From: Candidatus Kaiserbacteria bacterium
GTDB taxonomy: Bacteria; Patescibacteriota; Minisyncoccia; Phycocordibacterales; Phycocordibacteraceae
NCBI GenBank assembly: GCA_963699165.1
Contig: OY969413.1
Span: 532,562 to 596,561, forward strand
Direction of reading: 5' to 3'
DNA: 64,000 nt
Part shown: piece after piece, positions 24,938-55,834 of the stretch
How positions within the stretch are numbered: position 1 is the stretch's first letter
Layout: each line of letters begins with the position of its first letter
Translations under genes and position numbers: made by a program
Notes under the pieces: generated by a model
Seen by the model: the letters and a program-made list of their open reading frames with translations, nothing else
What the model was told of the DNA's origin: nothing
The model's database searches: none

Positions 24938-26191
24938 TTACTCGTACCGCAGAGCGTCGATAGGATTTTTCTTTCCGGCTTTGCGCGCCGGATAAATGCC
25001 GAAGACGATGCCGGCGAGTCCCGACACGCCGAGACCGAGAATGACGGAGGAAATCGGAAATGCAAACGTCCATCCAAGCGACGGATTAAACGCATTGATG
25101 CCGAGATAGGCCGCGCCGACAACGAGCGCGCCAAAAGCGATGCCGATAACTCCGCCCGAAAACGTAAGCAACACCGATTCGATGAGGAATTGCTGGAGGA
25201 TATCGTTGTCGGTCGCGCCGACGGCTTTGCGCAGGCCGATTTCGCGCGTCCGCTCCGTGACCGAGACGAGCATGATATTCATGATGCCGATGCCGCCGAC
25301 AACGAGCGAGATGGATGCGATGGCGGCAAGAAACATCGTGAGCACCGACGTGATGGTGCCGAGAATGGAAAGAATGTCGGCCTGCGTCTGAATGGTGAAA
25401 TCGTCCTTGGTCGGATCGGTGATGCCGTGACTATTTTGCAGGATGAAGCTGATGCGCGATTTTACGAAATTAATATCGTAGTTTGCATTTGCCTGCACGA
25501 CGATGACATTGAAATAGGTGATGCCGAGCAGCTGTTTTTGCGCGACGGTTATCGGCATCACGACGATGTTCCCGATGTCAACGCCGAACGCTCCCGTGCC
25601 GCCCTTGGCCAGCACGCCGACAACGCGAAAGGATTCATTTTTCAGACGGATAAGCTTGTTTATCGGGTCAACGTTCGGACCGAACAGAGTTTTCGCGAGA
25701 TCGGGACCGATGACCACGACATGGTTCGCCGAATCGACGTCGCCTTTCGTAAAGGTCTGTCCGGTCGACACCTTTGCCAGATTGCTGACGACGTAGAAGT
25801 CCGCCGTGCTTCCGGTATAGCTCACCGTTTTTGTGGTATTGCCGTACACGACATCCGCCTGTCCGCGGACTTCCGGCACGGCGTAGTCGATGGTCGGGTC
25901 GCGCGAGAGCGAATCTACATCCTGCTGTTTCAAGCTGGCAATGATAATGCCCTGCGACGAAGCCGGCGCGGAAAGTCCCCCGCCGCTCGGTGCGCCCGGC
26001 ACGATAACGATGAGGTTGGAACCGACGCTTTGCACCTGCCCGAGAATGAGGTTCTGCGCCGACTGCCCTATCGACATCAAAATAATCACCGACGCGATGC
26101 CGATGACGACGCCGAGCATCGTCAAAATCGAACGCATTTTCCCGTGCGTTAAGCTTCTGGTTGCCGTTTTGAATGCATCGCGGAATAGCAT
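24938..26191 (-). CDS. MacB-type ABC transporter permease (FtsX domain with MacB periplasmic domain)
   Basis: N-terminal TM, a large extracytoplasmic domain, and a C-terminal FtsX-like four-TM bundle. C-terminal YPARKA...NPIDALRYE. Confidence 0.9.
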   Translation of the reverse strand: MLFRDAFKTATRSLTHGKMRSILTMLGVVIGIASVIILMSIGQSAQNLILGQVQSVGSNLIVIVPGAPSGGGLSAPASSQGIIIASLKQQDVDSLSRDPTIDYAVPEVRGQADVVYGNTTKTVSYTGSTADFYVVSNLAKVSTGQTFTKGDVDSANHVVVIGPDLAKTLFGPNVDPINKLIRLKNESFRVVGVLAKGGTGAFGVDIGNIVVMPITVAQKQLLGITYFNVIVVQANANYDINFVKSRISFILQNSHGITDPTKDDFTIQTQADILSILGTITSVLTMFLAAIASISLVVGGIGIMNIMLVSVTERTREIGLRKAVGATDNDILQQFLIESVLLTFSGGVIGIAFGALVVGAAYLGINAFNPSLGWTFAFPISSVILGLGVSGLAGIVFGIYPARKAGKKNPIDALRYE

Positions 26192-26193
26192 GA

Positions 26194-26898
26194 TTATTTA
26201 AGCGGACCGTGCAGACGGTGCGAGGTGATTGCCTGATCGCTTTCCTTCAAACCGTCGCGCATGCGGATGATGCGGTTCGCAAACTCGGCGGTCTGCGTCT
26301 CGTGCGTTACGAGAATGATGGTGCGGCCCTTTTCGTGAAGCGATTTGAGTATTTCCATAATTTGCAGACCGGACTGCGAATCAAGGTTGCCGGTCGGTTC
26401 ATCGGCAAAGATGACATTCGGGTCCGTCACAAGAGCGCGCGCTATGGCCACGCGCTGTTTTTGTCCGCCGGAAAGTTTCCCCGCTTCGGTATGTAGTTTT
26501 TCGCCGAGACCGACCGAGCGAACGGCTTCTTCAACAAATGTTCGCCGCTTCGCAGGCGCAACGGTGGAATACAGAAGCGGCACTTCCACATTGTCATACA
26601 CCGTCAAGCGCGACAGCAGGTTGAACGATTGAAAGACGAAGCCCATGTCTTTGTTGCGGACATGCGCGAGCTCGTGGTCGGTCATATCGTCGATACTTTT
26701 CCCCTGAAACTTGTACGAACCGCCCGTCGGTCGGTCGAGGAAGCTTAATATCTGCAGAAGCGTGGACTTCCCCGATCCGGATGGCCCCATGATTGAAACA
26801 AACTCGCCCTTGTCTATCGTGAACGTCACTCCCCGAAGCGCAAGCGTCGGCGTTTCTTCATCGACGTATTCTTTTTTTAGGTCGTTTACTTCAATCAT
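26194..26898 (-). CDS. MacB/LolD-type ABC ATP-binding protein
   Basis: [45 protein letters not shown]. Confidence 0.9.
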
Positions 26899-28460
26899 TT
26901 GGCTTTAAGTCCGATGTTGATGACTTTTTCCCCGAGCGTCACGCCGGAGAGGACTTCAACGTTGCCGTTTTGGTCTTGAATGCCGAGCGTTACCGGCGTC
27001 GTCGTAGTCGTTTTGCCGAACGGCGTTTCGACAAAGGTGCCGCTGTTATTTTGCAATATCGCGTATTGCGGGAGAATGAGCGCGTTGTCGTGCTTTTTTG
27101 TTTGGATGTCCATGTTTACCGTAAGACCGCTTTTGAGCCGCGGATCCGCTTTCGTAAATCCGGCTTTGATCTGATAGCTGATGACGCCCTGCACATTCGT
27201 TTCGGCAGGCGCAATGTAGAAGACCGTGCCCGTAAACGTCTCGCCCGGAAATGCGTCAATGGTCATCGACACGCTGTCGCCGACGGCTATTTTTCCGACG
27301 TCGGTGTCCGCCACGCCCGTGTCTACCTCAAAGCCGCTGTCGCCGATAATTGAAATGAGCGGCGTACCCGGAACTGCCTGCTGGCCGACTTTCGCATCCA
27401 TTTGCGTAATTACACCGCTTATCGGTGCAACGATTTGCGTATTTTGCAGATTGGCTTCGGCGCTCGCCACGCCCGCCAGTGCCTGTTCGACTTGCGCCTG
27501 CTGCGCGGCGATTGCCTGCGGGGTGGCGCCCGCTTGTTTGAGTGCAAGCTGTGCCTGCGCCTGTGCCACCAACTGCTGTTGCGACGCTATGTTTTGAGAA
27601 ATGGTATCGAGGTTTTTCTCTGCGGTATTTACTTCGCTCACTGCGACGGAGAGATTGCCTTTATAGGAAGCCAGCGTCGCGGCGCTTAAGCCGGTCGAAT
27701 TGCTGAGCGTCGTCGAAACGCTGTTGAGGAGCTGTTGCACGGATGCAAGGTACGCAATTTCATTTTGCGAAAGCGTTTGCAGCGCATCGCTCGACTGGCT
27801 GCCCGCCGTCAACTGGGTCTGCCAGGTATTGAGCGCCGCCGTAACCGATACTCGCTCGGTCTGCGCATCGTTTTGCGCCTGAAAATTCGCGGTGTTATAC
27901 GTAAGGGTCGGACTCGGCGTGTCGCCGTTCGTAAAGAATTGATTGAGCTCGGTCCGGACCGCGTCGTTTGCTTTCGCGTACGCGTCGACGGAGGCGTCGT
28001 TGATGCTCGCATACATGTTTGCAAGATCTTGGTTCGCCTTATCGACGGCCGCTTGCGATGCCGCAATGTCCGCCGGTTGCGCGCCTGCCTTCAAATTTGC
28101 AAGCTGCGCCTGCTGGGCGTCGACGTTTGCCTGGGCCTGCTGCAGCGCGGCGGACAAACTTGCCGTGTTCAATTCCGCAATGACCGAACCGGCGGTGACG
28201 CGGTCGCCGAGATTGTAATAGGCATGCGCGATCGTGCCGGAATTCTGAAATGCGAGCGAAACACTCTTCGTTGGCGCCGTGTTTCCGGTTGCTGAAACCG
28301 TTTCCGAAATCGAACCCTGCGTGACGGTTATGAACTGATAGGACGGTCCGCGGCTGCTTGCGTACCACCAATACCCTCCCCCGATGAGAAGCAGCGCGAT
28401 GATTGCGAGCGTCCATTTTGATTTGAAAAATCCCAAAATTTTATTTGAAGTTGCGGGCAT
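26895..28460 (-). CDS. HlyD-family periplasmic adaptor with a long coiled coil (paralog 1)
   Basis: N-terminal TM, a Q/A-rich coiled coil, and C-terminal beta-barrel/lipoyl segments. Overlaps the ATPase gene start. Confidence 0.85.
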   Translation of the reverse strand: MPATSNKILGFFKSKWTLAIIALLLIGGGYWWYASSRGPSYQFITVTQGSISETVSATGNTAPTKSVSLAFQNSGTIAHAYYNLGDRVTAGSVIAELNTASLSAALQQAQANVDAQQAQLANLKAGAQPADIAASQAAVDKANQDLANMYASINDASVDAYAKANDAVRTELNQFFTNGDTPSPTLTYNTANFQAQNDAQTERVSVTAALNTWQTQLTAGSQSSDALQTLSQNEIAYLASVQQLLNSVSTTLSNSTGLSAATLASYKGNLSVAVSEVNTAEKNLDTISQNIASQQQLVAQAQAQLALKQAGATPQAIAAQQAQVEQALAGVASAEANLQNTQIVAPISGVITQMDAKVGQQAVPGTPLISIIGDSGFEVDTGVADTDVGKIAVGDSVSMTIDAFPGETFTGTVFYIAPAETNVQGVISYQIKAGFTKADPRLKSGLTVNMDIQTKKHDNALILPQYAILQNNSGTFVETPFGKTTTTTPVTLGIQDQNGNVEVLSGVTLGEKVINIGLKAK

Positions 28461-28616
28461 GGCGGCATTCGTTTAATAGATGGTTGATATTGACAGTATA
28501 GCGCGAATCGGTTCATTTCGACAGCGTTGCCGCGGCTGCGGCAGTCCCTGCAAAAGAGAGAGACAATCCCCTCGCGAGGATTGCCCCTTCAAATCTTCCC
28601 GATCCGAGAAATGCGG

Positions 28617-28967
28617 CTAGTGCTTGATGCTCGTCGCTGTGTCGGCGCCGAATTGCGTCATGAACACGTTGAGTTCGTCTTTGGAAACCGAAAGAACAGG
28701 GGCGCCTTCCTTCGTGATGAGCACCGAGCCGCCGATCGTCGCGGCAACGATGCTGTGCACGCTTATTCCCGAAGTCGTCGTGCCGGAATAGTTGGTCCAA
28801 TTCGATACATCGTTCGGGTCGACGAACGCCGGCGTGCCGTCCACGATAATCGGCACCAACCGCTTGGACTTCTGATGAGAACCGCGCGACCTCTGAACGC
28901 CGTTTGACCCGCTAATTGTTCTTCCAAACCGATTTGCCATACTAAACTCCTCACTGTGTACGTTCAC
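28617..28967 (-). CDS. small hypothetical protein heading the HlyD-MacB operon (about 107 aa from MANRF)
   Basis: ORF immediately upstream of the adaptor on the same strand. Basic N-terminus with no TM. The C-terminal part is weakly similar to the beta-rich module of the 44747 and 47152 proteins. Confidence 0.4.
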   Translation of the reverse strand: MNVHSEEFSMANRFGRTISGSNGVQRSRGSHQKSKRLVPIIVDGTPAFVDPNDVSNWTNYSGTTTSGISVHSIVAATIGGSVLITKEGAPVLSVSKDELNVFMTQFGADTATSIKH

Positions 28968-38977: not shown

Positions 38978-39427
38978 ATGCCCCCTCCAAAAAAACCGTT
39001 TATCGGGAGTCGGATTCTGCTTTGGGCGGGATTCGTCGCCGTCGCCATTGCATACGTCGCGTGGCAAAACTTCGGTTCCAGAAGACCGGCGCCGACACAG
39101 ACGCCCGCAACGAACCCCGCCCAAACGACCGCGACAACCGTTGCCTATAAAGACGGCGCATATACCGGCACGGCCGCAAATGCGTTTTACGGCATCCTGC
39201 AAGTGAAGGCGGTTATTTCGGGCGGCAAGCTCGCGGATGTGCAATTTCTGCAGTACCCGAGCGATCGAAGCGCCTCGCTCGCAAAAAGCAACCAGGCGAT
39301 GCCGATTCTGAAACAGGAAGCCATCGCCGCGCAAAGCGCGAATGTGGACATTGTTTCCGGAGCGACGCAAACCAGCCAGGCATTTCAAACATCGCTCGCC
39401 TCCGCGCTCTCGCAGGCGGCAAGCTAA
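38978..39427 (+). CDS. membrane-anchored FMN-binding domain protein (ApbE flavinylation substrate type)
   Basis: N-terminal TM, FMN_bind domain with the flavinylation-site motif DIVSGATQTS. Confidence 0.75.
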   Translation: MPPPKKPFIGSRILLWAGFVAVAIAYVAWQNFGSRRPAPTQTPATNPAQTTATTVAYKDGAYTGTAANAFYGILQVKAVISGGKLADVQFLQYPSDRSASLAKSNQAMPILKQEAIAAQSANVDIVSGATQTSQAFQTSLASALSQAAS

Positions 39428-39469
39428 CCCGTCATTCGCCCCGGTCGCATACGGCGGTACAATGCACGC

Positions 39470-40039
39470 ATGGACGCATCGGATGAGGAATTGATTGCGG
39501 AATACCTTGCCGGCCGCGAGGAATCGTTTGCCGTCCTCGTACAGCGGCACGTTAAAGGTGTCTATTCCTTTATAGCGCGTTCCGTCGGTGAGGAAGCGGA
39601 CGACATTGTCCAAGAAACGTTTTTTCGGGCGTGGAAAAATCTGAAATCGTACGATTCCGCCGAAGCGAAATTCAAAACGTGGCTCATGCGCATCGCGCGA
39701 AACGCTACGATTGATTATTTGCGCAAAAAGAAACCCGCGCTTTTCTCGGCATTCGAAAATGACGAGGGCGAAAGTTTTCTGTTGGACACGCCCGACACGG
39801 AGCCGCTTCCGGACGAATTGGTCGCTCGCGCGAACGACGCGCGTGAAGTTCAGACGGTCCTGGAAGGGTTGTCCCCCGCGTACCGCGAAGTGCTTCTGCT
39901 CCGGTATATGAACCAATTGACCTTCGAAGAGATAAGCGCGGTACTCGGCATGCCCGCAAATACGGTTCGGAGCCGCCACCACCGCGGCCTTGCGCAACTC
40001 CGGAAACGTCTTCAAGAAACGCATCAAAAACGCAAGTAA
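39470..40039 (+). CDS. ECF (group IV) sigma-70 factor
   Basis: Region 2 (FRAWKNL...WLMRIARN) and region 4 (LTFEEISAVLGMPANTVRSR). Confidence 0.9.
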   Translation: MDASDEELIAEYLAGREESFAVLVQRHVKGVYSFIARSVGEEADDIVQETFFRAWKNLKSYDSAEAKFKTWLMRIARNATIDYLRKKKPALFSAFENDEGESFLLDTPDTEPLPDELVARANDAREVQTVLEGLSPAYREVLLLRYMNQLTFEEISAVLGMPANTVRSRHHRGLAQLRKRLQETHQKRK

Positions 40040-40064
40040 TTCGTATATACTTACAATAACGCCT

Positions 40065-40463
40065 ATGCCCAACAACGCCGCACCGCTTTTCAGGGAAATC
40101 GAACCGCCGCAGGGGCTTGTACCGGCGATTTTGGTGCGCATTGCCCGCGCACGTCAAAATGCCGCCCGTCTGCGCATGGCGGCGTTCGGCACGGTTGCCC
40201 TCGTGTCGCTCGTTACGCTCGTGCCCGTATTTCAGTACGCCGCAACCGAATTCAGCACCTCCGGCTTTGTTCAATACGCGTCTCTTTTCTTCGATAGCTT
40301 CTCGCGCGGATATTGGCAGGAGATTCTGTATTCGCTCGGCGATTCTCTGCCCTCCTTCGCGCTCCTGCTTCTCGCGGCGATTATCAGCATCGGCGCATCG
40401 TCGTTGTGGTATGCAAGCCGCAACGCGCGAATCGCGTTCACCCGCGTGGCGCTCGGGACATAA
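40065..40463 (+). CDS. putative membrane anti-sigma factor
   Basis: Immediately downstream of, and overlapping, the ECF sigma gene. Short cytoplasmic N-terminus, then TM helices. No zinc-finger motif. Confidence 0.4.
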   Translation: MPNNAAPLFREIEPPQGLVPAILVRIARARQNAARLRMAAFGTVALVSLVTLVPVFQYAATEFSTSGFVQYASLFFDSFSRGYWQEILYSLGDSLPSFALLLLAAIISIGASSLWYASRNARIAFTRVALGT

Positions 40464-40472
40464 CATTCATTC

Positions 40473-40919
40473 ATGAAAACACTTGAGGACTTTTTCGCTT
40501 CCAAAAAAGTGCGTCTAACCGCCATTGTTTTCGGCGGCATTATTCTCGCATTTCTTATTTTCCACGCGGGAGTCGAAATCGGAGAGCACGGCGGTGAATT
40601 TGACCGGCGCGGTCCGGACCGCGATTTCCGCCATCCACTCTTGCCCGGCGTCGCGCTGCCGCACGAGTTCATTCAAAACGGGCACGGGGCCGTCGGCACG
40701 ATAACCAATGTGTCGCTTCCGACCCTCACCGTTTCGACGCCGGACGGCAGAAACGAAACGATTCTCGTCAGTTCTTCAACGATGGTTCGGAGCATAGATG
40801 GTCCGGCAACCCAGCATTTTTCGGTGGGAAGTCAGATTGTCGTGCTCGGAGAGCCGGACAATCAGAACCGGATTGACGCAACCTTTATACGCATACTACC
40901 CGCAACAACAACGCCATGA
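40473..40919 (+). CDS. small single-pass membrane protein carrying one copy of a beta-rich ~60-aa module (possibly DUF5666-like)
   Basis: N-terminal TM (AIVFGGIILAFLIF), then GAVGTITNVSLPTLTVSTPDGRNETILV...SVGSQIVVLGEP...IDATFIRILP. Its stop overlaps the adaptor start. Confidence 0.5.
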   Translation: MKTLEDFFASKKVRLTAIVFGGIILAFLIFHAGVEIGEHGGEFDRRGPDRDFRHPLLPGVALPHEFIQNGHGAVGTITNVSLPTLTVSTPDGRNETILVSSSTMVRSIDGPATQHFSVGSQIVVLGEPDNQNRIDATFIRILPATTTP

Positions 40920-42733
40920 ACACTTCCGTACCTAAACCGGCCGCAACGACCAACCGATTTACCGCAGTAAAAACATATATTGCGGGGCACAAATGGCTGA
41001 GCGGAATCATACTGCTCGCGCTCATCGGCGGCGGCTACTATGCCTACAAAGTGTTCGACGCGCCATCGGGCGCGACTCGATACGTAACGACCGTCGCCGC
41101 GACTGGCACGGTCGTCGCATCCATGTCGGAAACCGGACAGGTTTCCGCGAGTTCAAACGTCAGCATCGAATCGCAATCGTCCGGCGAAGTCCTTTCCATT
41201 CCGGTGCAGGCCGGAGAACATGTGAGCGCGGGAACCGCGCTCGCTTACCTCGATCCGACGACGGCGCAGCAAAACGTCGAAAGCGCGAAACAAGCCCTTG
41301 AGGCGGCGCAACTCTCGCTCGCGATGCTTCAGGAACCGACCGCTACATCGACACTTACTTCCACGCAAAACTCGGTCGCAACGGCGCAGGCGAATCTGGT
41401 GCAGGCGCACCAAACCAGCTATAACGACATTTCCGTCGCATTCCTGAATCTTCCGACCGTCATCACCGGCCTTGATTCCGTTTTGCACGGCTCAACGGTT
41501 CCGGGCCGCACAAGCGAGCAGAATGAAAACGCGTATAGCGATATGGTCGAGCCATATGACTCGACCGTCGTGCAATACCGCACCACGGCCGAAAGTTCCT
41601 ATCAGACGGCATACGCCGCCTACACGAAAACGCTCGCCGATTTCAAAGCGACTCCTCGAACGGCGGATGATGCGACGATTGAAGCCCTCATAAATGAATC
41701 CTATCAAACGGCGGCAGACATCTCCGACGCGCTCAAGGCCTCGACGAGTTTTCTAAATTTCGTCGATACGACGCTTACGTATCACAACCTTTCGCTTCCC
41801 TCGACCTTAAACGGCCACCTCAATACGCTCACCGGATACACGACGACGACAAATCAGTACGTCGCGACGCTCGCGAGCGACGCGGCAAACATCACGAGTT
41901 CCGAGCGCTCCCTTGCGGCCGCACAGGCATCTCTTCAACAATTGCAAGCCGGAGCCGATCCTCTTTCGGTTCAGTCGAGCCAGCTCTCCATTCAAGGAAA
42001 AGAGGACGCGCTCGCGCAGGCCGAGCAGGCGCTCGCCGAAACCGTCGTGCGCGCGCCGTTTGACGGCACGGTCGCGCAGACGAGCGTACAGCAGTATCAA
42101 ACCATCGGAAACGGCACCGCCGTTGCAACCATGGTGAGCGACAATCAGAACGTCAATATCTCGGTAAACGAAGTGGATGCCGCAAAACTTAAGGTTGGTC
42201 AGAAAGCGACCATCACGTTCGATGCGCTGCCGAATATCTCGATTGCGGGCACCGTTTCCTCTGTAAATTCCATCGGCACGGTTTCTTCGGGCGTCGTCTC
42301 CTACGGCGCGGTTGTGACCTTTGACACGCCAAACACGAGCGTGAAGCCGGGCATGAGCGCGACCGTTGACATCGTTACGAGCACCGAAACCGGAATCGAG
42401 ATTCCAAGCAGTGCCGTGAAAACATCGGGCACGCAAAGTTATGTGCAGATATTCAATCCGCCTCTCGCAAATAGCAGCGGAAGCACCGGGGCCGCTTCGG
42501 CAGTAGCGCCAACGCGCAAAACGGTCACGACCGGCCTCACTGACAACACGAACATCATCATTGAAAGCGGTTTGTCTGCCGGCGATCAGGTCGTCACAAA
42601 GACGATTGCGGGAACCGCGACTGCTGCAGCATCAACCGCTTCAAGAACCACGACCACATCGCTCTTCGGAGCAGGCGGCGGTCCTGGCGGTGTTGGCGGC
42701 AGCGCGGGAGCGGTGCGCGCACTTACACGATGA
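40916..42733 (+). CDS. HlyD-family adaptor with a long coiled coil (paralog 2)
   Basis: N-terminal TM, Q/A/T-rich coiled coil, beta-barrel, and a Gly-rich C-terminal tail. Confidence 0.85.
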   Translation: MNTSVPKPAATTNRFTAVKTYIAGHKWLSGIILLALIGGGYYAYKVFDAPSGATRYVTTVAATGTVVASMSETGQVSASSNVSIESQSSGEVLSIPVQAGEHVSAGTALAYLDPTTAQQNVESAKQALEAAQLSLAMLQEPTATSTLTSTQNSVATAQANLVQAHQTSYNDISVAFLNLPTVITGLDSVLHGSTVPGRTSEQNENAYSDMVEPYDSTVVQYRTTAESSYQTAYAAYTKTLADFKATPRTADDATIEALINESYQTAADISDALKASTSFLNFVDTTLTYHNLSLPSTLNGHLNTLTGYTTTTNQYVATLASDAANITSSERSLAAAQASLQQLQAGADPLSVQSSQLSIQGKEDALAQAEQALAETVVRAPFDGTVAQTSVQQYQTIGNGTAVATMVSDNQNVNISVNEVDAAKLKVGQKATITFDALPNISIAGTVSSVNSIGTVSSGVVSYGAVVTFDTPNTSVKPGMSATVDIVTSTETGIEIPSSAVKTSGTQSYVQIFNPPLANSSGSTGAASAVAPTRKTVTTGLTDNTNIIIESGLSAGDQVVTKTIAGTATAAASTASRTTTTSLFGAGGGPGGVGGSAGAVRALTR

Positions 42734-43467
42734 TTGAAATAAAAAACATTACAAAAACCTACGGTTCCGGCATCGAAGCGTACACCGCGCTGCGCGGCGT
42801 TTCCTTCACCATAGATGAAGGAGAATTCGTCGCCATTATGGGTCCTTCCGGAAGCGGAAAATCGACGCTCATGCACATTCTCGGCTGTCTCGACACGCCG
42901 ACGTCCGGCACCTACATTCTCGACGGCAAAGACGTATCGACGATGACCGATGACGAACTTGCCGAAATCCGCAAGGACAAAATCGGCTTCGTCTTCCAGT
43001 CCTTCAATCTTCTCTCGCGCACTACCGTGATTCGCAATGTCATGCTGCCGCTCGTCTACGCCGGCGTGTCATCCGAAGAACGGCACGAACGCGCCGCGGA
43101 GGCGCTCGCATCTGCCGGCCTTGCGGAAGAATATTTTTCGCATCTTTCGAATCAGCTTTCCGGCGGGCAAATTCAGCGCGTCGCCATCGCGCGTGCGCTC
43201 GTAAATAATCCGGCACTCATCCTCGCCGATGAGCCGACCGGCAACCTTGATTCAAAAACAAGTTTAATCGTGCTCGGAACGCTGCAAAAATTGAATAAGG
43301 ATTTCGGCCGCACTATCGTGCTTATCACCCACGAACCGGACATCGCCGAACATGCAAACCGCATCATTCGCCTCCGCGATGGAGTCATTGTGTCGGATGA
43401 GAAAAACAAATCTCCGCGCGACGCCGTGCTCGAAACACAACTCTATGACGAGAGCAAAACCGTCTGA
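42730..43467 (+). CDS. MacB/LolD-type ABC ATP-binding protein
   Basis: [44 protein letters not shown]. Confidence 0.9.
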   Translation: MIEIKNITKTYGSGIEAYTALRGVSFTIDEGEFVAIMGPSGSGKSTLMHILGCLDTPTSGTYILDGKDVSTMTDDELAEIRKDKIGFVFQSFNLLSRTTVIRNVMLPLVYAGVSSEERHERAAEALASAGLAEEYFSHLSNQLSGGQIQRVAIARALVNNPALILADEPTGNLDSKTSLIVLGTLQKLNKDFGRTIVLITHEPDIAEHANRIIRLRDGVIVSDEKNKSPRDAVLETQLYDESKTV

Positions 43468-43470
43468 CCT

Positions 43471-44706
43471 ATGAAAACCCGCGACCTAATCGACGAAACA
43501 TATGCCGCGCTTTCCGCAAACAAAGTGCGGTCCGGCCTCACCGTGCTCGGCATCGTCATCGGAATCGCGTCCGTCATCGCGCTCACGGCCATCGGCCAGG
43601 GAGCGCAGGCATCGATTCAAAAATCAATTCAGTCCCTCGGCTCGAACCTTATCGAAGTAACGCCCGGTGCGGCGCGCCAAATCGGCTTCGGCGTCTCCGG
43701 CGGGCGCGGCACGGCCCGTTCGCTCACCCCCGGCGACGAAAACGCTATTGCGCAAGTCGACAACGTGGCGGCCGTCTCGGGCGAATATTCAAGCCGCTCT
43801 CAAGTCGCGGCGTCGGGCGCTAACACCAACACGACCGTCGACGGCGTTAACGCGGCCTATGCAACCATCCGCAACGTAACGATTGACCAGGGGGCTTTCA
43901 TTACCGACAGCGAATCGGCATCACTCGCAAAAGTCGCGGTCATCGGCCCGACCGTCGTCACCGATTTGTTCGGTTCAACCGCAACGGCATCCGATGCTAT
44001 TGGCCAGCACATTCGCATCAACAACATCGAGTTCACCATCATCGGCGTTACGGTAACGGCCGGAACGAGCGGTTTCAATAGTCCGGATACCTTTGTGTAT
44101 GTTCCGCTTGGCACGGCATTTCAATACTTCGCAGGAACGGGCAATCAATTCCTTTCGACCATCGACATTCAGGCGACAAGCCAAGACGCGATGACACAGG
44201 TCCAAAACGATGTCACTTCCCTTTTGCTTACGCGCCATAACATTACGGACCCGACGAAAGCCGATTTCAGCATCCTCAATCAGGCGCAAATCGTTTCGGC
44301 GGCTTCAAGCGTGACGGGAACGCTTACGGCGCTGCTTGCGGCGGTCGCGGGCATCTCGCTCGTCGTCGGCGGCATCGGCATCATGAATATGATGCTCACC
44401 ACCGTCACCGAACGCATGCGCGAAATCGGACTGCGCAAAGCCATCGGCGCAACGAAGAAAGACATCAATAATCAATTCCTCGCCGAGGCCATTGCGCTCA
44501 CGTTTACCGGAGGCGCAATCGGCATTGCGCTCGGCTGCGGGATATCCTTCATCGTAAGCGCAACGGGCGTCGAAGCCGCACAAATAACGCTCCCGTCAAT
44601 TCTGCTTGCATTCGGCGTCTCGGCGGCAATCGGCATCATCTTCGGCTGGTATCCCGCGCGCCGAGCATCAAACCTTAATCCTATCGACGCCCTGCGCTAT
44701 GAATGA
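43471..44706 (+). CDS. MacB-type ABC permease (FtsX domain)
   Basis: Paralog of the 24938-26191 protein, with the same architecture and the C-terminal NPIDALRYE. Confidence 0.9.
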   Translation: MKTRDLIDETYAALSANKVRSGLTVLGIVIGIASVIALTAIGQGAQASIQKSIQSLGSNLIEVTPGAARQIGFGVSGGRGTARSLTPGDENAIAQVDNVAAVSGEYSSRSQVAASGANTNTTVDGVNAAYATIRNVTIDQGAFITDSESASLAKVAVIGPTVVTDLFGSTATASDAIGQHIRINNIEFTIIGVTVTAGTSGFNSPDTFVYVPLGTAFQYFAGTGNQFLSTIDIQATSQDAMTQVQNDVTSLLLTRHNITDPTKADFSILNQAQIVSAASSVTGTLTALLAAVAGISLVVGGIGIMNMMLTTVTERMREIGLRKAIGATKKDINNQFLAEAIALTFTGGAIGIALGCGISFIVSATGVEAAQITLPSILLAFGVSAAIGIIFGWYPARRASNLNPIDALRYE

Positions 44707-44746
44707 AAAGTGCCATGGGCGCGATTACACATAATTATTTTTACCT

Positions 44747-45169
44747 ATGAATACAACAACTATCGGTACGGGAATCATCGCGCTTATCATCGGCATTGGC
44801 ATCGGCTACTTCGGCGGCAATGCCCTGCATCCGGCTGCGGCGCCGAGCGCGCGCGGAAGCTTTGCGGGAACGGGCGGAAGCGGTTTCGCCGGAGCGCGCG
44901 GCGGCGCGGCCGGCGGCGGATTTCTCTCGGGCACCGTTTCGGCAGCTGATTCCGGAAGCATCACGCTCAACACGCGCGACGGCAGTTCGCACGTTGTTCT
45001 CGTCACGCCGGCAACGACCGTCTCAAAGAGCGTATCCGGAGCATTGTCCGATGTGTCGGTCGGTTCAAATGTATTGATTACCGGAACGACCAACAGCGAC
45101 GGAAGCGTTACGGCGGCCGTGATTCAACTGCGTCCCGCGACACCGGCTGCGGCGCCGACTCCGCAATAA
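44747..45169 (+). CDS. small single-pass membrane protein with a Gly-rich linker and one beta-rich module
   Basis: N-terminal TM (GIIALIIGIGIGYF), Gly-rich stretch, then SGSITLNTRDGSSHVVLVTPATTVSKSVSGALSDVSVGSNVLITGTTNSDGSVTAAVI. Confidence 0.5.
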   Translation: MNTTTIGTGIIALIIGIGIGYFGGNALHPAAAPSARGSFAGTGGSGFAGARGGAAGGGFLSGTVSAADSGSITLNTRDGSSHVVLVTPATTVSKSVSGALSDVSVGSNVLITGTTNSDGSVTAAVIQLRPATPAAAPTPQ

Positions 45170-45235
45170 GCGGCGGAAAATAAAAAAGGCGGCACGGGTG
45201 CCGGCACCCGTGCCGCCTTTTTTATTTTCCGCCGC
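45170..45235. terminator. bidirectional intrinsic terminator (66-bp perfect palindrome)
   Basis: GCGGCGGAAAATAAAAAAGGCGGCACGGGTGCC|GGCACCCGTGCCGCCTTTTTTATTTTCCGCCGC between convergent genes. Confidence 0.7.
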
Positions 45236-45236
45236 G

Positions 45237-47042
45237 TTATTGACCGGACAACTGCGAGATGCGGGCCAGCGCTTGTGTGAGTTGCGATTCCAAAGATTGC
45301 ACCTGCGCCTGCAATTGGCTCAAGGTCATACTCGAAATTGCTGTTCCGCTCGGTGCGGCGACGGATGTGGCATTCGCGGCTTTTGTCGTTTCAATCTGAT
45401 TGAGCGCGGCTCGGGTCCCGGGACCGACAACACCGAGCTGAGTCAGACCATGCGCGGCCTGAAATTGCAAAACCGCAGCTTCGGTCAAAGAACCGAAATA
45501 TCCCGTCGGGGCGGCGGAAAGAAATCCTTGCGCGGCGAGCACTGTCTGAAGCTGCGTCACGTCTGTTCCCGTCGAACCGGGCACGAGATATTTTGTAAAC
45601 GTGAATGCGGGGGTTGCCGATGGTTGCGATACCATCGCTGGCACAGAAACTGTCGGTGCAACAGCCGCCGGAGCCGTCGCACCATTTACCGTCACCGTTA
45701 GCGGAGCGCACCCGCCGCCCGAAGAACAAACACTGACGGACGATACGCCTGACGCAACGCCGTACACGGTCAGCGTGCTGCCGTTCAGCGTTTCCTGCGA
45801 GACGGAATTCGTCCCGCCGGAAACAAAGTACGGCGGCGTGCCGCCGGAAATCGCGATTGTGGAATTTTGTCCCGAAAGCAGCGATAGCGCATTTTGACTG
45901 ATGGTGATATTGTTGCCGGTCGACGCGTATTGAACGGTCACGTTCACCGATGCGCATGTTCCGGTCGAGGCACACACCGAAATACTTGAAGTTCCTTGCG
46001 CGATGCCGGTCAGAGTCAGTGTTGTTCCGGAAAGATTCGCCTGCACGATGCTCGGGCTCGAATTCGAGGAAACGTAAAATTGCACGCCCGAGGGACCGTA
46101 AATATTCAGGGTCGTACTTTGACCCGTCGACACAACCGGCGCACTGCTGCTAAATGATACTGCTAAAGAACTCGAACTTCCGGCCGCTGCAACGACGATG
46201 CCGCACGATGCCATGTCGGACGAACACACCGTTATGGACGACGAACCGCTTGTGGAGCCGGTGCTGAGAGTTAGAACCGAGCCGCTGATACTCGCCTGTA
46301 TCACGCTCGAATTGGAATCGTTTTGTACCTGGTATATGCCGTTTCCTCCGCTGAGCGTAATCGGCAAATTTTGTCCGCTCACTACCATTGCGTTTGTTTG
46401 GCTCAAATTCAATTGAGAAGCGCCCGCCGGCAGGACGGTCACGTACACGCTCGGACAAGTCGTCGCATTGCCGACCTGGCAAAGCGTTACCGTCGTCGAC
46501 CCCGCCGTGTTGCCGGAGATTGTCACCTGCGTGCCGTTAATGCTGACATTTGCAATCGACGAATTCGAATTATTCGAAACATAGAGCGCGGTTGAGCCGA
46601 TGTTGCTCGCGGTTATGCTTGCGCTTGAACCGGCATCGATCACAATCGCATTTTGGCTCAATGAGAGCGCATTGGTCGAAGAAACGGTCGGCCACGCGAC
46701 GGTCGGCGATTTCGGTCCGCCCGTGCCGTTTAGAATCGCGGTTACGAGCGTACCGGAAGTAAGACCGTATGTCGCACTCGATACCGTCGTCGTAAAGTTT
46801 CCACTTCCGTCCGTCGTGCCGAGAGACACGATTTGGGCACCGGAACCGGCCTCGGTATACGACAGAAGCACACTGACGTTCGGGTCGCCGTAGACCGTTA
46901 TCTGTACATTATCGCCGCTCCCCGTTGCTAAAAGAGACAATGTCGGCGGTACGGTGGCAAAAGCAAAAACAGGAATGAACAAACCGATAAAACTTAGGAA
47001 TAAAAAGGTGAGAACCGATGTAGTTGTGAAGGTTCGTTGCAT
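45237..47042 (-). CDS. cell-surface protein: signal peptide, repeated Ig-like (Big_2-type) modules, C-terminal PG_binding_1 peptidoglycan-binding domain
   Basis: Start at MQRTF with a signal peptide. Repeated roughly 80-aa S/T-rich beta modules. C-terminal GSTGTDVTQLQTVLAAQGF...GYFGSLTEAAVLQFQAAHGLTQLGVVGPGTRAALN. Confidence 0.7.
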   Translation of the reverse strand: MQRTFTTTSVLTFLFLSFIGLFIPVFAFATVPPTLSLLATGSGDNVQITVYGDPNVSVLLSYTEAGSGAQIVSLGTTDGSGNFTTTVSSATYGLTSGTLVTAILNGTGGPKSPTVAWPTVSSTNALSLSQNAIVIDAGSSASITASNIGSTALYVSNNSNSSIANVSINGTQVTISGNTAGSTTVTLCQVGNATTCPSVYVTVLPAGASQLNLSQTNAMVVSGQNLPITLSGGNGIYQVQNDSNSSVIQASISGSVLTLSTGSTSGSSSITVCSSDMASCGIVVAAAGSSSSLAVSFSSSAPVVSTGQSTTLNIYGPSGVQFYVSSNSSPSIVQANLSGTTLTLTGIAQGTSSISVCASTGTCASVNVTVQYASTGNNITISQNALSLLSGQNSTIAISGGTPPYFVSGGTNSVSQETLNGSTLTVYGVASGVSSVSVCSSGGGCAPLTVTVNGATAPAAVAPTVSVPAMVSQPSATPAFTFTKYLVPGSTGTDVTQLQTVLAAQGFLSAAPTGYFGSLTEAAVLQFQAAHGLTQLGVVGPGTRAALNQIETTKAANATSVAAPSGTAISSMTLSQLQAQVQSLESQLTQALARISQLSGQ

Positions 47043-47151
47043 ATGTTGCTCAGTATAATATACGCAAAAGACAAGGGAACGTTCCGGTTCCCACAACGTA
47101 TATACACTTGTACACGCTTTGTACATGATTAGTAGATAGAACGATTCAACC

Positions 47152-48006
47152 ATGCATACATTATCTAAATCTGCCCGGCAGGCCCTCGCGGTCGGATTGA
47201 CACTCATAGGCTTATTCGCAATAACATCAAGCGCATTCGCAGCCGAACCGGCTGGCAGAGCGGGCTTCGGCGGATTCCGAGGCGGCCCGAACATGCCGCG
47301 TCCCGCAGTCGTTGGCACGGTTGCGTCCATTTCCGGCAACACGCTTACCGTGACGTCGAGAGCGTGGGCAGGCGGCCGCGGACATGCGACAACCACCCCG
47401 GCGACATCTTCCGTCTCGACCACCTACACGGTCGATGCAACAAATGCGACCGTCACTAAAAACGGCGCAGCTTCCACCGTCTCGGCCATCGCTACCGGCG
47501 ATACCGTCATGGTTGAAGGCACTGTAAGCGGGACCAGCGTCACCGCCACCGCAATTCGCGACGGCATGATGGGCCGCGGCGGACCGGGCGGGTTTGGAGG
47601 AAAACAGGGACAGGGACCGCGATTCGGTTCCAATACACCAGCCACCAATACACCGGTTATCACCGGCAACGGGCAGCCGGTCATCGGCGGAAACGTGACG
47701 GCAATTAGTGGAAACACGCTCACCGTCACAAATAAAAGCAGCGTCACCTACTCCGTCGACGCAACTTCGGCGAAGATTGTGAAGCACGGCGTCGCAACCT
47801 CAACCATCTCGAACGTATCGGTCGGAGACAGCGTCGTCGTTCAGGGCACCGTGAACGGAACTTCGATCACCGCATCGACCGTCATTGATAACGGGACGCC
47901 TCCGGCCGCACCGGCGGGCACCGCAAGCGGAACGCCGCCAGCTAAACACGGCGGATTCCTCGGCGCTATCGGCGGATTCTTCTCGCACCTCTTCGGATTC
48001 TTTTAA
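47152..48006 (+). CDS. secreted protein with two tandem copies of the same beta-rich module and Gly-rich linkers
   Basis: Signal peptide. Repeats VGTVASISGNTLTVT...TYTVDATNATVTKNG...ATGDTVMVEGTVSGTSVTATAI and IGGNVTAISGNTLTVT...YSVDATSAKIVKHG...VGDSVVVQGTVNGTSITAST. Confidence 0.55.
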   Translation: MHTLSKSARQALAVGLTLIGLFAITSSAFAAEPAGRAGFGGFRGGPNMPRPAVVGTVASISGNTLTVTSRAWAGGRGHATTTPATSSVSTTYTVDATNATVTKNGAASTVSAIATGDTVMVEGTVSGTSVTATAIRDGMMGRGGPGGFGGKQGQGPRFGSNTPATNTPVITGNGQPVIGGNVTAISGNTLTVTNKSSVTYSVDATSAKIVKHGVATSTISNVSVGDSVVVQGTVNGTSITASTVIDNGTPPAAPAGTASGTPPAKHGGFLGAIGGFFSHLFGFF

Positions 48007-53140: not shown

Positions 53141-53605
53141 CTACTGCCCCGTCTCGGTTTCCTTAATGCGCTCGAGCGCGCTTGTGAATGCGGCAAGTTC
53201 GGAAGGGGTCAGACCGTTGAAAAGTCCGCCCAACACTTTTCTGCCGCGCACCATGGCTTTTTTCAAATCGTTCTTCCCTTCTTGCGTGAGCAGGAGACGC
53301 GAGGTGCGTTTGTCTTTTTTGTCGGCGTGACACTCGACGCGGCCGCTCTTCACGAGGTCGCCGATGAGCGATGTGGTCGAAGGCGCGGTGATGGAAAGAT
53401 ACTCTGCAACGTCTTTCATTTTCGGTTCGGGATGCTCCGAAATAAATTTCATCGTTTCAACCCAGAGCCACGTCGACGGATCGAGCTTTGCGCCCTTCGG
53501 AAGCTGCTTCGCGAGTTCGGTTCGCATAACGCGGCGTATAACAAAAAGCAGCGATACGACGCGCGAGATGTCTTCAAATGAATGCTTGTGTGAGCGTGAA
53601 GTCAT
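53141..53605 (-). CDS. MarR-family transcriptional regulator
   Basis: Winged-helix region (ISEHPEPKMKDVAEYLSITAPSTTSLIGDLVKSGRVECHADKKDKR). Start placed at MTSRS, downstream of the MFS stop. Confidence 0.8.
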   Translation of the reverse strand: MTSRSHKHSFEDISRVVSLLFVIRRVMRTELAKQLPKGAKLDPSTWLWVETMKFISEHPEPKMKDVAEYLSITAPSTTSLIGDLVKSGRVECHADKKDKRTSRLLLTQEGKNDLKKAMVRGRKVLGGLFNGLTPSELAAFTSALERIKETETGQ

Positions 53606-53612
53606 AGCTGTA

Positions 53613-55142
53613 TTATCCACCCGCGGCGGCTTCGGCGAGCATCTCGGGCGGGATATCTTTTTTTTCTTTGCGGGTGACGCGCAAAAGCAGGAGCGCGACA
53701 AGCGCACCGAAAATCATCGCCGCCGCCGCATCTTTGAAAACGGTTCCGTACGCGAGCAGGTCGGCTTTCATAATGATTAACTGTTGCGCCTCCGCGAGGA
53801 TGGTCGGCGTCGAACCGTTGATGTGCGAATTCTGCGCAACGACAAGCACATTTGCATTTGTCGCATTTTCAAGCACCGTTCCAAAGATTGCAATGCCGAA
53901 CGCTCCGCCGATGTTGCGGGTGAGATTCAAAAGTCCGGATGACATGCCGATTTCATTCATCGGCACGGCCGACGTGGCGGCGGTAGTAAGCGGCGCCATG
54001 CCGAGGCCGAGACCCGCTCCGAACAAAACGAGCGGTAAAACGAAACTCATCGATATCATCGTCGGGTCAAGATGCACGAGCTGGTACAGGCCGAGCGCCG
54101 ACAGCGCCATGCCGAAGGAAACCGTGTAGCGCGGATTGATTGAAAGCGCGAGCCGCGCTCCGAGCGGCGCAAAAATCGGCATCGCAAGCCCCATCGGCAC
54201 GAACAAGTATCCGCTTTGCGTCGCCGTATACTGCAAAAACGTCTGCGCGAATACCGGCAACAGGAAGAGCGCGCCCATCATGCCGCCGAAAGAAATAAAC
54301 GAAACAATGAGCACCGACACGATGACCGGATTTTTGAAAAATTTGAAGTCGATGATGGGGTGCGTATGGCGCGTTTCCCATTGGTACACGAGCAATCCGA
54401 ATACCACGGTGCAGATGTAGCAGATGACGCTCGCATTCGAGGTCCAGCCCCACGTCTGCCCGCGGTCGACGACAAGCACCAAACTCGAAATCGCACCCGA
54501 GAGAAGTACCGCGCCAAACCAGTCGAATGTCCCGCGCTCGCCCGGACGGTCATGCGGCAAGAAAAGCAGCGTCATGATAAGACCCGCGATGCCGATGGGC
54601 AGATTGATGTAAAAAACGGAACGCCATGAAAAATTATCGACGAGATATCCTCCGAGCAAAGGGCCGAGCACGGCGGATACCGCGAATGAAGACGACCAGA
54701 TGCCGAGCGCCTGCGCGCGCGCCTTCGGGTCGCTAAACGATTTTGCGATAAGCGACATTGCGGTCGGATACACGGCTGCGCCGACGAGCCCTTGCACGAT
54801 GCGAAAGAATACGAGCGAATCGAAATTCCACGCAAGTCCGGCAAACATCGAAATGATGATGAACCCGACGAAGCTCCAAAGATAAATGATGCGGTTGCCG
54901 AAAAGATCGCCGAGTTTCCCGAAGACCGGCACGAAAATCGCATTGCTGATGATGTAGGCGGTCGAAATCCATGCGGCGGTGGACACCGTGATGCTGAAGT
55001 CATTGATGATTTTCGGCACGGCGAGGCCGACCACCGTGCGGTCGAGCCCGATAAGCAGCGTGCCGACCATCACCGTGGTCAGAACGAGCCACGGATGCCC
55101 CGTGAGTCGATGCGCTTGAGGCCGTGCGGCTAGTTCTGCCAT
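53613..55142 (-). CDS. MFS transporter, DHA2 (EmrB/QacA) 14-TM drug:H+ antiporter type
   Basis: 14 predicted TM helices, the MFS motif A region, 509 aa. Confidence 0.85.
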   Translation of the reverse strand: MAELAARPQAHRLTGHPWLVLTTVMVGTLLIGLDRTVVGLAVPKIINDFSITVSTAAWISTAYIISNAIFVPVFGKLGDLFGNRIIYLWSFVGFIIISMFAGLAWNFDSLVFFRIVQGLVGAAVYPTAMSLIAKSFSDPKARAQALGIWSSSFAVSAVLGPLLGGYLVDNFSWRSVFYINLPIGIAGLIMTLLFLPHDRPGERGTFDWFGAVLLSGAISSLVLVVDRGQTWGWTSNASVICYICTVVFGLLVYQWETRHTHPIIDFKFFKNPVIVSVLIVSFISFGGMMGALFLLPVFAQTFLQYTATQSGYLFVPMGLAMPIFAPLGARLALSINPRYTVSFGMALSALGLYQLVHLDPTMISMSFVLPLVLFGAGLGLGMAPLTTAATSAVPMNEIGMSSGLLNLTRNIGGAFGIAIFGTVLENATNANVLVVAQNSHINGSTPTILAEAQQLIIMKADLLAYGTVFKDAAAAMIFGALVALLLLRVTRKEKKDIPPEMLAEAAAGG

Positions 55143-55155
55143 GGTGAGGCTAACG

Positions 55156-55815
55156 TTACTTCGTATAAATCCACATGCGCGCCGACATGCCGTTTTTCAA
55201 TTGCGGGTAGGTCGTAGTATCGAAGCGCACTTTGATATCAAACTGCTGCGTCTGACGCTGGTCCGAAATGTTGAACACGATGCCCGACTGGTTCGACGAT
55301 GGCGCGATTTCGTCCACGACGCCGTTGAATTTCTCCGACCCGAACGCATCGACCGTAAAAGTCACCGGGTCGCCGACTTTAATTTGCGCAAGACCTTTAT
55401 TTTCATCGATTTTCCCGACCACGCGCAATTGCGACGGGTCAATCATTTCCACAACCGGCTGACCGGGAGCGATTTGCGCGCCGATGGTGTTGTTTACCTG
55501 CACGACGAGTCCGGCGACTTTCGTTTTCACGACTTCCGTTCCGACAAGAGCGACCGGAGAGTTTGCGGGAAGCATATCGCCTTCGTTTGCATAAATTGCA
55601 TTCAAGCGTCCCGCCGAAATCGGCGAGAGGTCGATGAGCGGCGCCGAAATCGAAGACGTATCGATGGCGACTTCTTTTGCCGAAAAAATGAAGTATGCGG
55701 CGATGCCGGCGGCGGCAAGAATAATGACGCCGATGCTACCGAAAATCGCAAGGCGGCGGCGCATCTCCGGCGTAAATACTTTTGCTTTTTCGTGTGTGTT
55801 TGCGTGCGTGGTCAT
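55156..55815 (-). CDS. short HlyD/EmrA-like adaptor (no extended coiled coil)
   Basis: N-terminal TM, then biotinyl/lipoyl-like and beta-barrel segments; about 219 aa. Confidence 0.7.
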   Translation of the reverse strand: MTTHANTHEKAKVFTPEMRRRLAIFGSIGVIILAAAGIAAYFIFSAKEVAIDTSSISAPLIDLSPISAGRLNAIYANEGDMLPANSPVALVGTEVVKTKVAGLVVQVNNTIGAQIAPGQPVVEMIDPSQLRVVGKIDENKGLAQIKVGDPVTFTVDAFGSEKFNGVVDEIAPSSNQSGIVFNISDQRQTQQFDIKVRFDTTTYPQLKNGMSARMWIYTK

Positions 55816-55834
55816 GGTAGTTTTTTCAATGCGA

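Follow-up and report, generated by a model that had tools for sequence, protein, structure and literature searches.

The closest described counterparts of the gene cluster reported here come from three different settings. In Bacillus, the pump YknWXYZ needs a fourth membrane protein, YknW, which acts as an assembly factor (PMC4887032), and yknWXYZ is a core operon of the SigW regulon (PMC3498285). CusF and the C-terminal domain of SilB are oligonucleotide/oligosaccharide-binding (OB)-fold accessories of HlyD-adaptor pumps and hand over substrate (PMC4446572, PMC6235853). In Cupriavidus metallidurans, the sigma factor, the short anti-sigma factor and the separate membrane-anchored sensor of the CnrYXH system control the adaptor-containing pump cnrCBA (PMC6851896). 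Our subject is a plus-strand locus (39470-45215) within a 64,000-nucleotide stretch from a Candidatus Kaiserbacteria bacterium (assembly GCA_963699165.1, contig OY969413.1, positions 532,562 to 596,561), a stretch that we refer to as the window. We put the chances at about even that this locus represents a YknXYZ-like pump that is served by a lineage-specific, tethered OB-fold accessory and accompanied by a CnrYXH-like sensor that is a paralogue of this accessory.

The locus begins with the gene for an extracytoplasmic function (ECF)-type sigma factor (39470-40039), followed on the same strand by a putative anti-sigma factor of about 132 amino acids (aa) with two transmembrane (TM) helices (40065-40463) and by a small membrane-anchored protein carrying one domain of the family DUF5666, here called 'up' (40473-40919). 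The HlyD-family (YknX/MacA-like) adaptor HlyD2 comes next (40916-42733); its hairpin region is extended and its C-terminal tail is rich in Gly. It is followed by an ATP-binding cassette (ABC) ATPase of the MacB/LolD/YknY type (42730-43467; ABC_tran), a MacB-type (type VII ABC) permease (43471-44706) and a second small DUF5666 protein, 'down' (44747-45169). Because the stop codon of 'up' overlaps the start of the adaptor gene, only 40 nucleotides (nt) separate the permease gene from 'down', and a bidirectional terminator-like hairpin (45197-45215; GGTGCCGGCACCCGTGCC, then a T-run on both strands) follows 'down', the plus-strand unit extends from 39470 to 45215; no terminator was flagged in the 40-nt gap. 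The first-pass annotation of this DNA, made from the sequence alone, had described both junctions correctly. It had set the locus at 24938-28967, a span that covers only a minus-strand operon and contains no protein with the shared module, so that the core had to be relocated.

The pump core itself is an ordinary MacAB/YknXYZ relative. According to the open reading frame (ORF) listing and family scans, the window contains two sets of HlyD adaptor, ABC ATPase and MacB permease, together with a third long adaptor, and the coordinates and domains previously assigned to the two MacB-type operons (24938-28460, minus strand; 40916-44706, plus strand) hold. Within both sets, the genes for ATPase, permease and adaptor overlap or abut in one operon. 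The permease of the cassette matches MacB_PCD with E = 3e-42 and FtsX with E = 1.5e-21, its minus-strand counterpart matches MacB_PCD with E = 3e-40 and FtsX likewise at about 1e-21, and the best NCBIfam model for the cassette ATPase is the N-terminal half of MacB (E = 1.8e-76). The Pfam matches of HlyD2 are confined to the generic HlyD families HlyD_3 and HlyD_D23; its score against TIGR01730, a model that the window adaptors pass, is 144 bits (cut-off 94.9), and precomputed annotations assign PF25990 (Beta-barrel_YknX) and PF25989 (YknX_C) to its orthologues. As had been proposed, the three adaptors of the window are paralogues (pairwise identity 27-35%), and their hairpin regions are long: the alignment of HlyD2 with Escherichia coli MacA is restricted to residues 31-128 and 324-561, with some 180 extra residues in between, and about 263 aa separate its two lipoyl halves, so that the long adaptor hairpin is supported at the sequence level. 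Residues about 566-605 of HlyD2 (42610-42733) form a Gly-rich tail (..SLFGAGGGPGGVGGSAGAVRALTR), the composition of which resembles the Gly/Arg/Phe-rich linkers of 'down' (44840-44920) and of a secreted repeat protein described below; these tails and linkers may constitute a shared wall-spanning or interaction element.

Comparison with YknWXYZ, a pump conferring resistance to SdpC, reveals common features as well as clear departures. In both cases the host is a monoderm, the ATPase (YknY) and the permease (YknZ) are separate proteins working with an anchored HlyD adaptor (YknX), a fourth small membrane protein is present, and an ECF sigma factor is associated with the system; the sigma factor of the cassette is SigW-like, albeit below the model's cut-off, and the orthologues of its adaptor carry the YknX barrel and C-terminal Pfam families. 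However, the fourth protein of the cassette is a single-pass, OB-like DUF5666 protein encoded after the permease, whereas YknW is a multi-pass member of the Yip1 family and yknW is the first gene of its operon. Likewise, the cassette adaptors are 585-640 aa long with a hairpin region about twice that of MacA, and a sigma/anti-sigma pair is encoded inside the cassette in about two thirds of the loci. No Yip1/YknW homologue was found among the cassette proteins in Pfam and NCBIfam scans. The analogy to YknXYZ drawn in the first-pass annotation is consequently a reasonable one for the pump and its SigW-like sigma factor, but it does not extend to homology between the module proteins and YknW.

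The beta-rich module of about 60 aa that had been noticed in three proteins of the window, and that had been left as either DUF5666 or something new, is by sequence comparison Pfam DUF5666 (PF18914) and not a new family. It is present in exactly three window proteins: 'up' (25.2 bits, E = 2e-5) and 'down' (24.4 bits, E = 3.7e-5) score just below the gathering threshold of 27 bits, and a two-repeat secreted protein (47152-48006, plus strand) exceeds it in two stretches (32.9 bits). In all three proteins the match extends over 58 of the 60 positions of the model, homologues of 'up' and 'down' are already annotated as PF18914, and the mutual homology is seen both by BLASTP and by hidden Markov model comparison ('down' and 'up', 32% identity over 72 aa, E = 9e-8; 'down' and the two-repeat protein, 34% over 77 aa, E = 3e-4). 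DUF5666 has no assigned function and receives only passing mentions in the searchable literature; pump-linked 'up' and 'down' subfamilies, and an architecture of anchor, tether and single domain, are not described for PF18914.

Homologue searches divide the module proteins into three groups. The 'up' type (44 distinct homologues) consists of an N-terminal TM helix, a Pro/Arg/His-rich juxtamembrane stretch, the motif HGAVG and the domain. The abundant and well-conserved 'down' type (more than 100 homologues) has a TM helix, a Gly-rich linker (about 35 aa in the window), the motif ..NTRDGSSHVV.., a single domain and, in the window protein, a Pro-rich tail. Both single-module proteins are thus membrane-anchored by an N-terminal TM helix as had been stated, while the Gly-rich linker (26% Gly) attributed to both is found only in 'down'. 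The third group comprises secreted multi-repeat proteins with a GxIGGFFxHLFGFF tail. The two-repeat protein of the window, which ends in a GGFLGAIGGFFSHLFGFF tail, belongs here. Across the secreted multi-DUF5666 proteins (the window protein, P0012-P0014, P0020, P0102, P0121 and P0123) the tail reads G(A/S)IG(G/N)FF(S/Q/H)HLFGFF, and it has the appearance of an anchor or sorting signal at the C-terminus that is peculiar to these Patescibacteria.

Evidence for a connection between 'down' and the pump comes from its gene neighborhood, which we approached from both sides. A scan based on 'down', in which each GTDB species was represented by a single genome, yielded 24 loci. Nearly all of these are titled as Patescibacteria-group or unclassified metagenome-assembled genomes (one is labelled Victivallales), and 22 have informative upstream sequence. 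In 21 of these 22, 'down' lies immediately 3' of a HlyD-ABC-MacB set. The exception, L031 (1-4114), keeps 'down' and its promoter motif and lacks the three pump genes; its flanks, with genes for a FAD-linked oxidase and a DoxX-like membrane protein upstream of 'down' and for an RNA-recognition-motif protein downstream, are retained, which suggests either loss of the pump or an independent role for 'down'. In the converse scan of metagenomes, loci were selected by permease similarity only, and 80 of 584 confirmed loci were retrieved (permeases 57-66% identical). A DUF5666 gene follows the permease gene directly in 53 of the 67 informative loci, lies within 2.5 kb behind inserted ABC genes in 3 others, and is missing from the remaining 11. 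Permease gene and 'down' run in the same direction, and the gap between them has a median of 42 nt. The linkage of module proteins to MacB/HlyD operons, on which the first-pass annotation had staked its proposal, thus emerged from either starting point.

This did not apply to the two-repeat protein, which had been listed with 'up' and 'down' as a module protein around the plus-strand locus: its homologues stand amid unrelated genes in all three other genomes examined (L009, L114, L115), and it behaves as a generic secreted member of the family and a pump-unlinked paralogue. Between the cassette and this gene lies a minus-strand ORF (45237-47423, probable start near 47045) whose product is large and secreted, with a signal peptide (MQRTF...AFA), several immunoglobulin-like repeats rich in Ser/Thr and a C-terminal PG_binding_1 domain. 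The occurrence of DUF5666 in such a secreted protein, in unrelated contexts, fits an explanation in which the module proteins of the cassette are bystander envelope proteins, for example wall- or S-layer-associated, that share the neighborhood and the regulon of the pump and take no part in transport or signaling. The existence of 'down' without a pump in L031, the 16% of pump loci without 'down', and the unrelated secreted helical proteins that occupy the 'up' slot of L085 and L111 behind a GAAY.AAA-N12-GCGTAGTA promoter-like motif point the same way, as this slot may be no more than a place for envelope proteins induced by stress. Yet the genes stay very closely adjacent and on one strand even where the permeases have only 57-66% identity, 'up' overlaps the start codon of the adaptor gene in the window, and it goes with the sigma pair and not with the pump, which argues for a specific regulatory role; we regard the bystander explanation as unlikely.

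The structure predicted for the 'down' domain suggests what such a partner might contribute. In the AlphaFold (AF2) model, calculated from an alignment of 114 sequences, residues 58-128 form a 5-6-stranded barrel (pLDDT about 83); the TM helix and the Gly-rich tether, which is disordered, precede it. A Foldseek search of the domain against the PDB returned the C-terminal domain of SilB first (2l55, E = 7e-3, TMt 0.64), CusF next (1zeq, E = 1.5e-2, TMt 0.63) and then generic OB folds, and sub-threshold Pfam matches to OB families agree with this placement, so that the domain models as an OB-like beta-barrel. 'Down' shares with CusF, which is free, and with the corresponding domain of SilB, which is fused to the adaptor, the format of a small OB-fold barrel. 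It differs from both in that it has neither detectable sequence homology to them nor a Met/His/Trp metal site, belongs to an ABC/MacB rather than a resistance-nodulation-division pump of a monoderm host, and is held by a Gly-rich membrane tether; a profile search of the 'down' family against PDB sequences found nothing significant, CusF included. Judged by this analogy, 'down' may act as a tethered binding module beside the adaptor. A modest hint of physical coupling is provided by the correlation between the length of the 'down' linker (28-59 aa) and that of the adaptor hairpin region (226-373 aa; Spearman rho = 0.35, p = 0.004, n = 66, not phylogeny-corrected).

There are precedents for proteins as cargo. 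LolCDE extracts lipoproteins, MacAB exports the enterotoxin STII, and in the lactococcin-972 system an ABC transporter of the FtsX type is paired with a secreted protein that is small and rich in beta structure. On these precedents, 'down' might be cargo of the MacB pump, either pulled out of the membrane or exported by it, in the shape of a bacteriocin-like factor or a small, beta-rich protein of the envelope. MacB-family transporters act on substrates at the membrane's outer face (PMC5985334), the cassette ATPase matches the model of the lactococcin-972-type exporter (E = 5e-61, below the cut-off), about half of the 'down' homologues carry an A-x-A-like site after the N-terminal hydrophobic segment, so that they might be cleaved and released, and in many relatives 'down' is preceded by a promoter-like motif of its own. 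However, the A-x-A site is missing in the other half or so of the family, there is no lipobox Cys, and 'down' is single-copy and conserved to a similar degree as the adaptor (median identity 43% versus 38%); with more than 100 close homologues that are 57-85% identical, it looks more like a housekeeping partner than like a bacteriocin or an antigen. The combination of tether and domain, like the relationship between linker and hairpin length, is in keeping with a protein that stays anchored, and we consider it quite improbable that 'down' is cargo.

The second DUF5666 protein of the cassette follows a different partner. Of 47 informative loci, 31 have 'up' directly upstream of the adaptor gene, and 30 of these 31 also contain an ECF sigma gene; among the 16 loci without 'up', a sigma gene is found within 1.8 kb in only 5. 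The distribution over loci with both genes, 'up' only, sigma only and neither (30/1/5/11; Fisher p = 2.6e-6) bears out the co-occurrence with an ECF sigma factor for which a check had been proposed. In this lineage, the DUF5666 paralogues are thus stably attached, one to transport genes and one to the genes for the sigma factor and the two-TM protein.

The pair encoded at 39470-40463 had been annotated as ECF sigma and anti-sigma factor. The first assignment is secure: the protein contains the Pfam domains Sigma70_r2 and r4_2, scores 114 bits against TIGR02937 (cut-off 42.9), and has SigW as its best named models (142 bits, below the cut-off of 209). The second is putative and draws on position and topology, namely a basic cytoplasmic N-terminus of about 35 aa, two TM helices (hydrophobic segments) and an outer loop of about 45 aa; the gene most likely starts at 40065 and not at 39990. 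An ORF for a two-TM protein of about 130-150 aa is invariably found between the sigma gene and 'up', with divergent copies in all eight loci that phmmer had missed, and 31 distinct homologues share the motifs LF..PP.GL...RI, SGF..Y.SL.FSD and LESLP. A second ECF sigma gene, followed by one for a 236-aa multi-pass membrane protein, lies near the adaptor gene in L001 (4660-5914), L023 (2733-3990) and L030 (4706-5994), in the last case directly 5' of the adaptor gene; the beta-rich C-terminal domain of the 236-aa protein was considered as a further DUF5666 domain and dismissed (no Pfam match; hhalign probability 4%).

CnrYXH offers the nearest parallel to this arrangement. As in that system, an anti-sigma candidate with a very short cytoplasmic domain is combined with an anchored extracytoplasmic protein of about 150 aa, and genes for an efflux pump are adjacent. 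The analogy between CnrX and 'up' is functional only: the sensor domain of CnrX is built around a four-helix bundle and binds Ni/Co, whereas 'up' is a beta-barrel protein without conserved metal ligands; the putative anti-sigma factor of the cassette has two TM helices, and no homology to the Cnr proteins was detected. By this analogy, 'up' and the two-TM protein may form a split anti-sigma/sensor comparable to CnrX and CnrY with CnrH. Since 'up' and 'down' are paralogous and have a common anchor-plus-barrel design, and since 'up' travels with the sigma/anti-sigma pair, one could extend this idea and regard both proteins as sensors or regulators, with 'down' feeding into pump regulation by flux or substrate sensing of the BceAB type and giving no help in transport. 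However, ten metagenome loci with 'down' and without 'up', and most of the GTDB loci, have no sigma/anti-sigma pair nearby, nor does a gene for a kinase or another transducer stand beside 'down'. A purely regulatory role for both proteins therefore appears very unlikely to us.

The promoters of related loci provide a further tie between pump and 'down'. Where relatives have no sigma gene, the adaptor start is preceded at a distance of 30-60 nt by a bipartite motif, GAA(C/T)rAAA-N11-13-GCGTAGTA; the motif's geometry equals AAC-N17-CGTA and is ECF-like. The consensus of Bacillus subtilis SigW is TGAAAC-N16-CGTA. A position weight matrix trained only on these adaptor-upstream sites recovered the motif 25-39 nt before 'down' in L008, L011, L012, L016, L021, L023, L026, L027, L029, L030, L031 and L032, 18 nt before the first possible 'down' start in L083, and inside the 'down' ORF, 43 nt past the first possible start, in L038. 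In 2.39 Mb of sequence, 60 matches reached 15 bits or more, and 35 of these fell at adaptor and 'down' upstream positions. As the same motif precedes adaptor and 'down' genes, it implies that pump and 'down' are co-regulated in the sigma-less relatives. The motif in its GAAY.AAA-N12-GCGTAGTA form delineates a small regulon (L008, L012, L027, L029 and others; L082:1636, L085:1087, L111:3828) of adaptor operon and 'down', which also takes in a gene for an FMN-binding protein, homologous to that at 38978-39427 of the window, and genes for secreted helical Gly-tailed proteins that stand in for 'up' ahead of the adaptor gene.

The sigma gene of the window has a TACAAT -10 element about 8 nt before its ATG (39455-39469), and most of 34 related loci likewise show a TAnAAT box 7-11 nt upstream of the sigma start. 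This suggests that the sigma mRNA is leaderless or nearly so and is transcribed from a housekeeping-type promoter. An autoregulatory ECF promoter was sought within 200 nt upstream of the sigma gene in six loci and discarded, as no AAC-N15-19-CGT was present; the window contains one GAAAC-N15-18-CGTA match, which is no more than chance would give and has no bearing on the question. Upstream of 'down' in the window, only the -35-like half of the bipartite motif survives, overlapping the Glu and stop codons of the permease gene.

These observations lend themselves to a working model in which 39470-45215 would be a self-contained sense-and-pump cassette of Patescibacteria. The long-hairpin HlyD adaptor, the ATPase and the MacB permease would form the exporter core, and its cargo would likely be a membrane- or envelope-active compound, such as an antimicrobial peptide, a toxin or a similar agent, that is taken from the membrane's outer face through the adaptor tube. 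'Down' would be a dedicated fourth component, its OB-like barrel suspended on a flexible Gly-rich tether from the membrane anchor and binding substrate or adaptor beside the pump; its role may be akin to that of CusF, of the CusF-like C-terminal domain of SilB, or of the assembly factor YknW, with homology to none of them. 'Up' would belong to the regulatory half and constitute, together with the two-TM protein, a two-protein anti-sigma/sensor, a suggestion that derives from the short cytoplasmic segment and the small outer loop of the two-TM protein: the barrel of 'up' would sense a signal outside, and the two-TM protein would hold or release the ECF sigma factor inside. A bolder version, which we consider rather doubtful, has 'up' and 'down' as a matched pair recognizing the same extracellular ligand, with 'up' signaling to the minimal two-TM anti-sigma factor and thereby switching on the cassette, and 'down', on a Gly-rich tether whose length follows that of the adaptor, capturing the ligand and feeding it into the long adaptor tube.

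Several of our data weigh against this model. The pairing of pump and 'down' is not obligatory, given the 11 pump loci without 'down' and the presence of 'down' without a pump in L031, and the minus-strand MacB operon of the window has no DUF5666 partner at all. The fold matches of 'down' are weak (E about 1e-2), and similar lists are to be expected for any OB fold; the Met/Trp metal ligands of CusF are missing from the consensus of 104 'down' sequences, whose domain has no Met, Trp or Cys. For 'up', the AF2 model is poor (pLDDT 48, 10 sequences), and a candidate metal site had to be rejected when His residues of the TM and juxtamembrane part, conserved among 10 close homologues, proved not to be conserved in the 44-sequence family. 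The two-TM protein matches no anti-sigma family in Pfam or NCBIfam. On the regulatory side, the -10 element of the sigma gene, TAnAAT, is of the housekeeping type, searches of the window and of other cassettes with sigma and 'up' did not detect the GAAY.AAA-N12-GCGTAGTA motif, a target promoter of the cassette's own sigma factor was not found in the window, and the -35 half before 'down' overlaps a conserved Glu-stop of the permease gene, so that its conservation is partly coding. Even so, the bystander, cargo and dual-sensor explanations all fit the conservation and the split behavior of 'up' and 'down' less well than does a YknXYZ-like pump with a tethered accessory and a sensor paralogue.

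The remaining transport genes of the window place the cassette in context. The minus-strand operon (24938-28460) consists of genes for the adaptor HlyD1 (26895-28460), an ABC ATPase (26194-26898) and a MacB-type permease with MacB_PCD and FtsX domains (24938-26191), which share 27, 55 and 40% identity, respectively, with their plus-strand counterparts. A small ORF (28617-28967, minus strand; 107 aa, with an annotated start at 28940, residue 10) had been taken to head this operon. A terminator-like hairpin (28559-28588, minus strand), with a 13-pair stem and then CTCTTTTGCA, separates it from the HlyD1 gene. The predicted protein has a basic N-terminus and looks cytoplasmic, with neither a TM helix nor a DUF5666 module nor a Pfam family match, and the intervening hairpin together with the lack of helix and module rules it out as a pump accessory. 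Its 24 representative homologues (75-107 aa), with the family motifs ..W..(Y/H)(S/H)G.(T/S)..G..V.S.. and LSVSKDELEVF, indicate a real gene of a rare family, which we treat as unrelated to the pump.

The third long adaptor (55835-57367, minus strand), which the first-pass annotation had grouped with the two others, is indeed an adaptor, but it heads an EmrAB-like operon (53141-57367) of the major facilitator superfamily (MFS) and not a MacB operon, since it is followed on the minus strand by genes for a short, hairpin-less HlyD protein (55156-55815), an MFS transporter (53613-55142) and a MarR regulator (53141-about 53605). These four genes stand in the same order in L001, L017, L023, L034 and L036. 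This monoderm operon combines a long-hairpin adaptor of about 510 aa and a hairpin-less one of about 219 aa with an EmrB-like MFS protein and MarR; two adaptors with one MFS system are unusual. On one metagenome contig (L055, 1067-13230), all three systems are contiguous in a single-strand efflux island with the order sigma/two-TM/'up'/HlyD2/ABC/MacB/'down', HlyD1/ABC/MacB and HlyD3/short HlyD/MFS.

No description of the cassette was found in the searchable literature on Patescibacteria and MacB, and a term search of the paper re-classifying ECF sigma factors yielded nothing on Patescibacteria, HlyD or FtsX. With 'down', adaptor-containing pumps would gain a third kind of fourth component, besides YknW and CusF, and DUF5666 gains a testable context, with one subfamily as candidate pump partner and one as candidate sensor of an ECF switch. 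The locus also offers a compact candidate module of sensor, anti-sigma factor, sigma factor and pump that could be reconstituted in Bacillus. If 'up' and 'down' were indeed a matched, ligand-recognizing pair, this would be the first function for DUF5666 and a previously undescribed principle of substrate delivery and sensing for ABC/MacB pumps, operating in monoderm, host-dependent Patescibacteria. The Patescibacteria (candidate phyla radiation) make up a large and mostly uncultured part of bacterial diversity and have tiny genomes; that many of them retain a seven-gene cassette suggests that it likely matters for their survival on or near host cells and in the face of antimicrobials.

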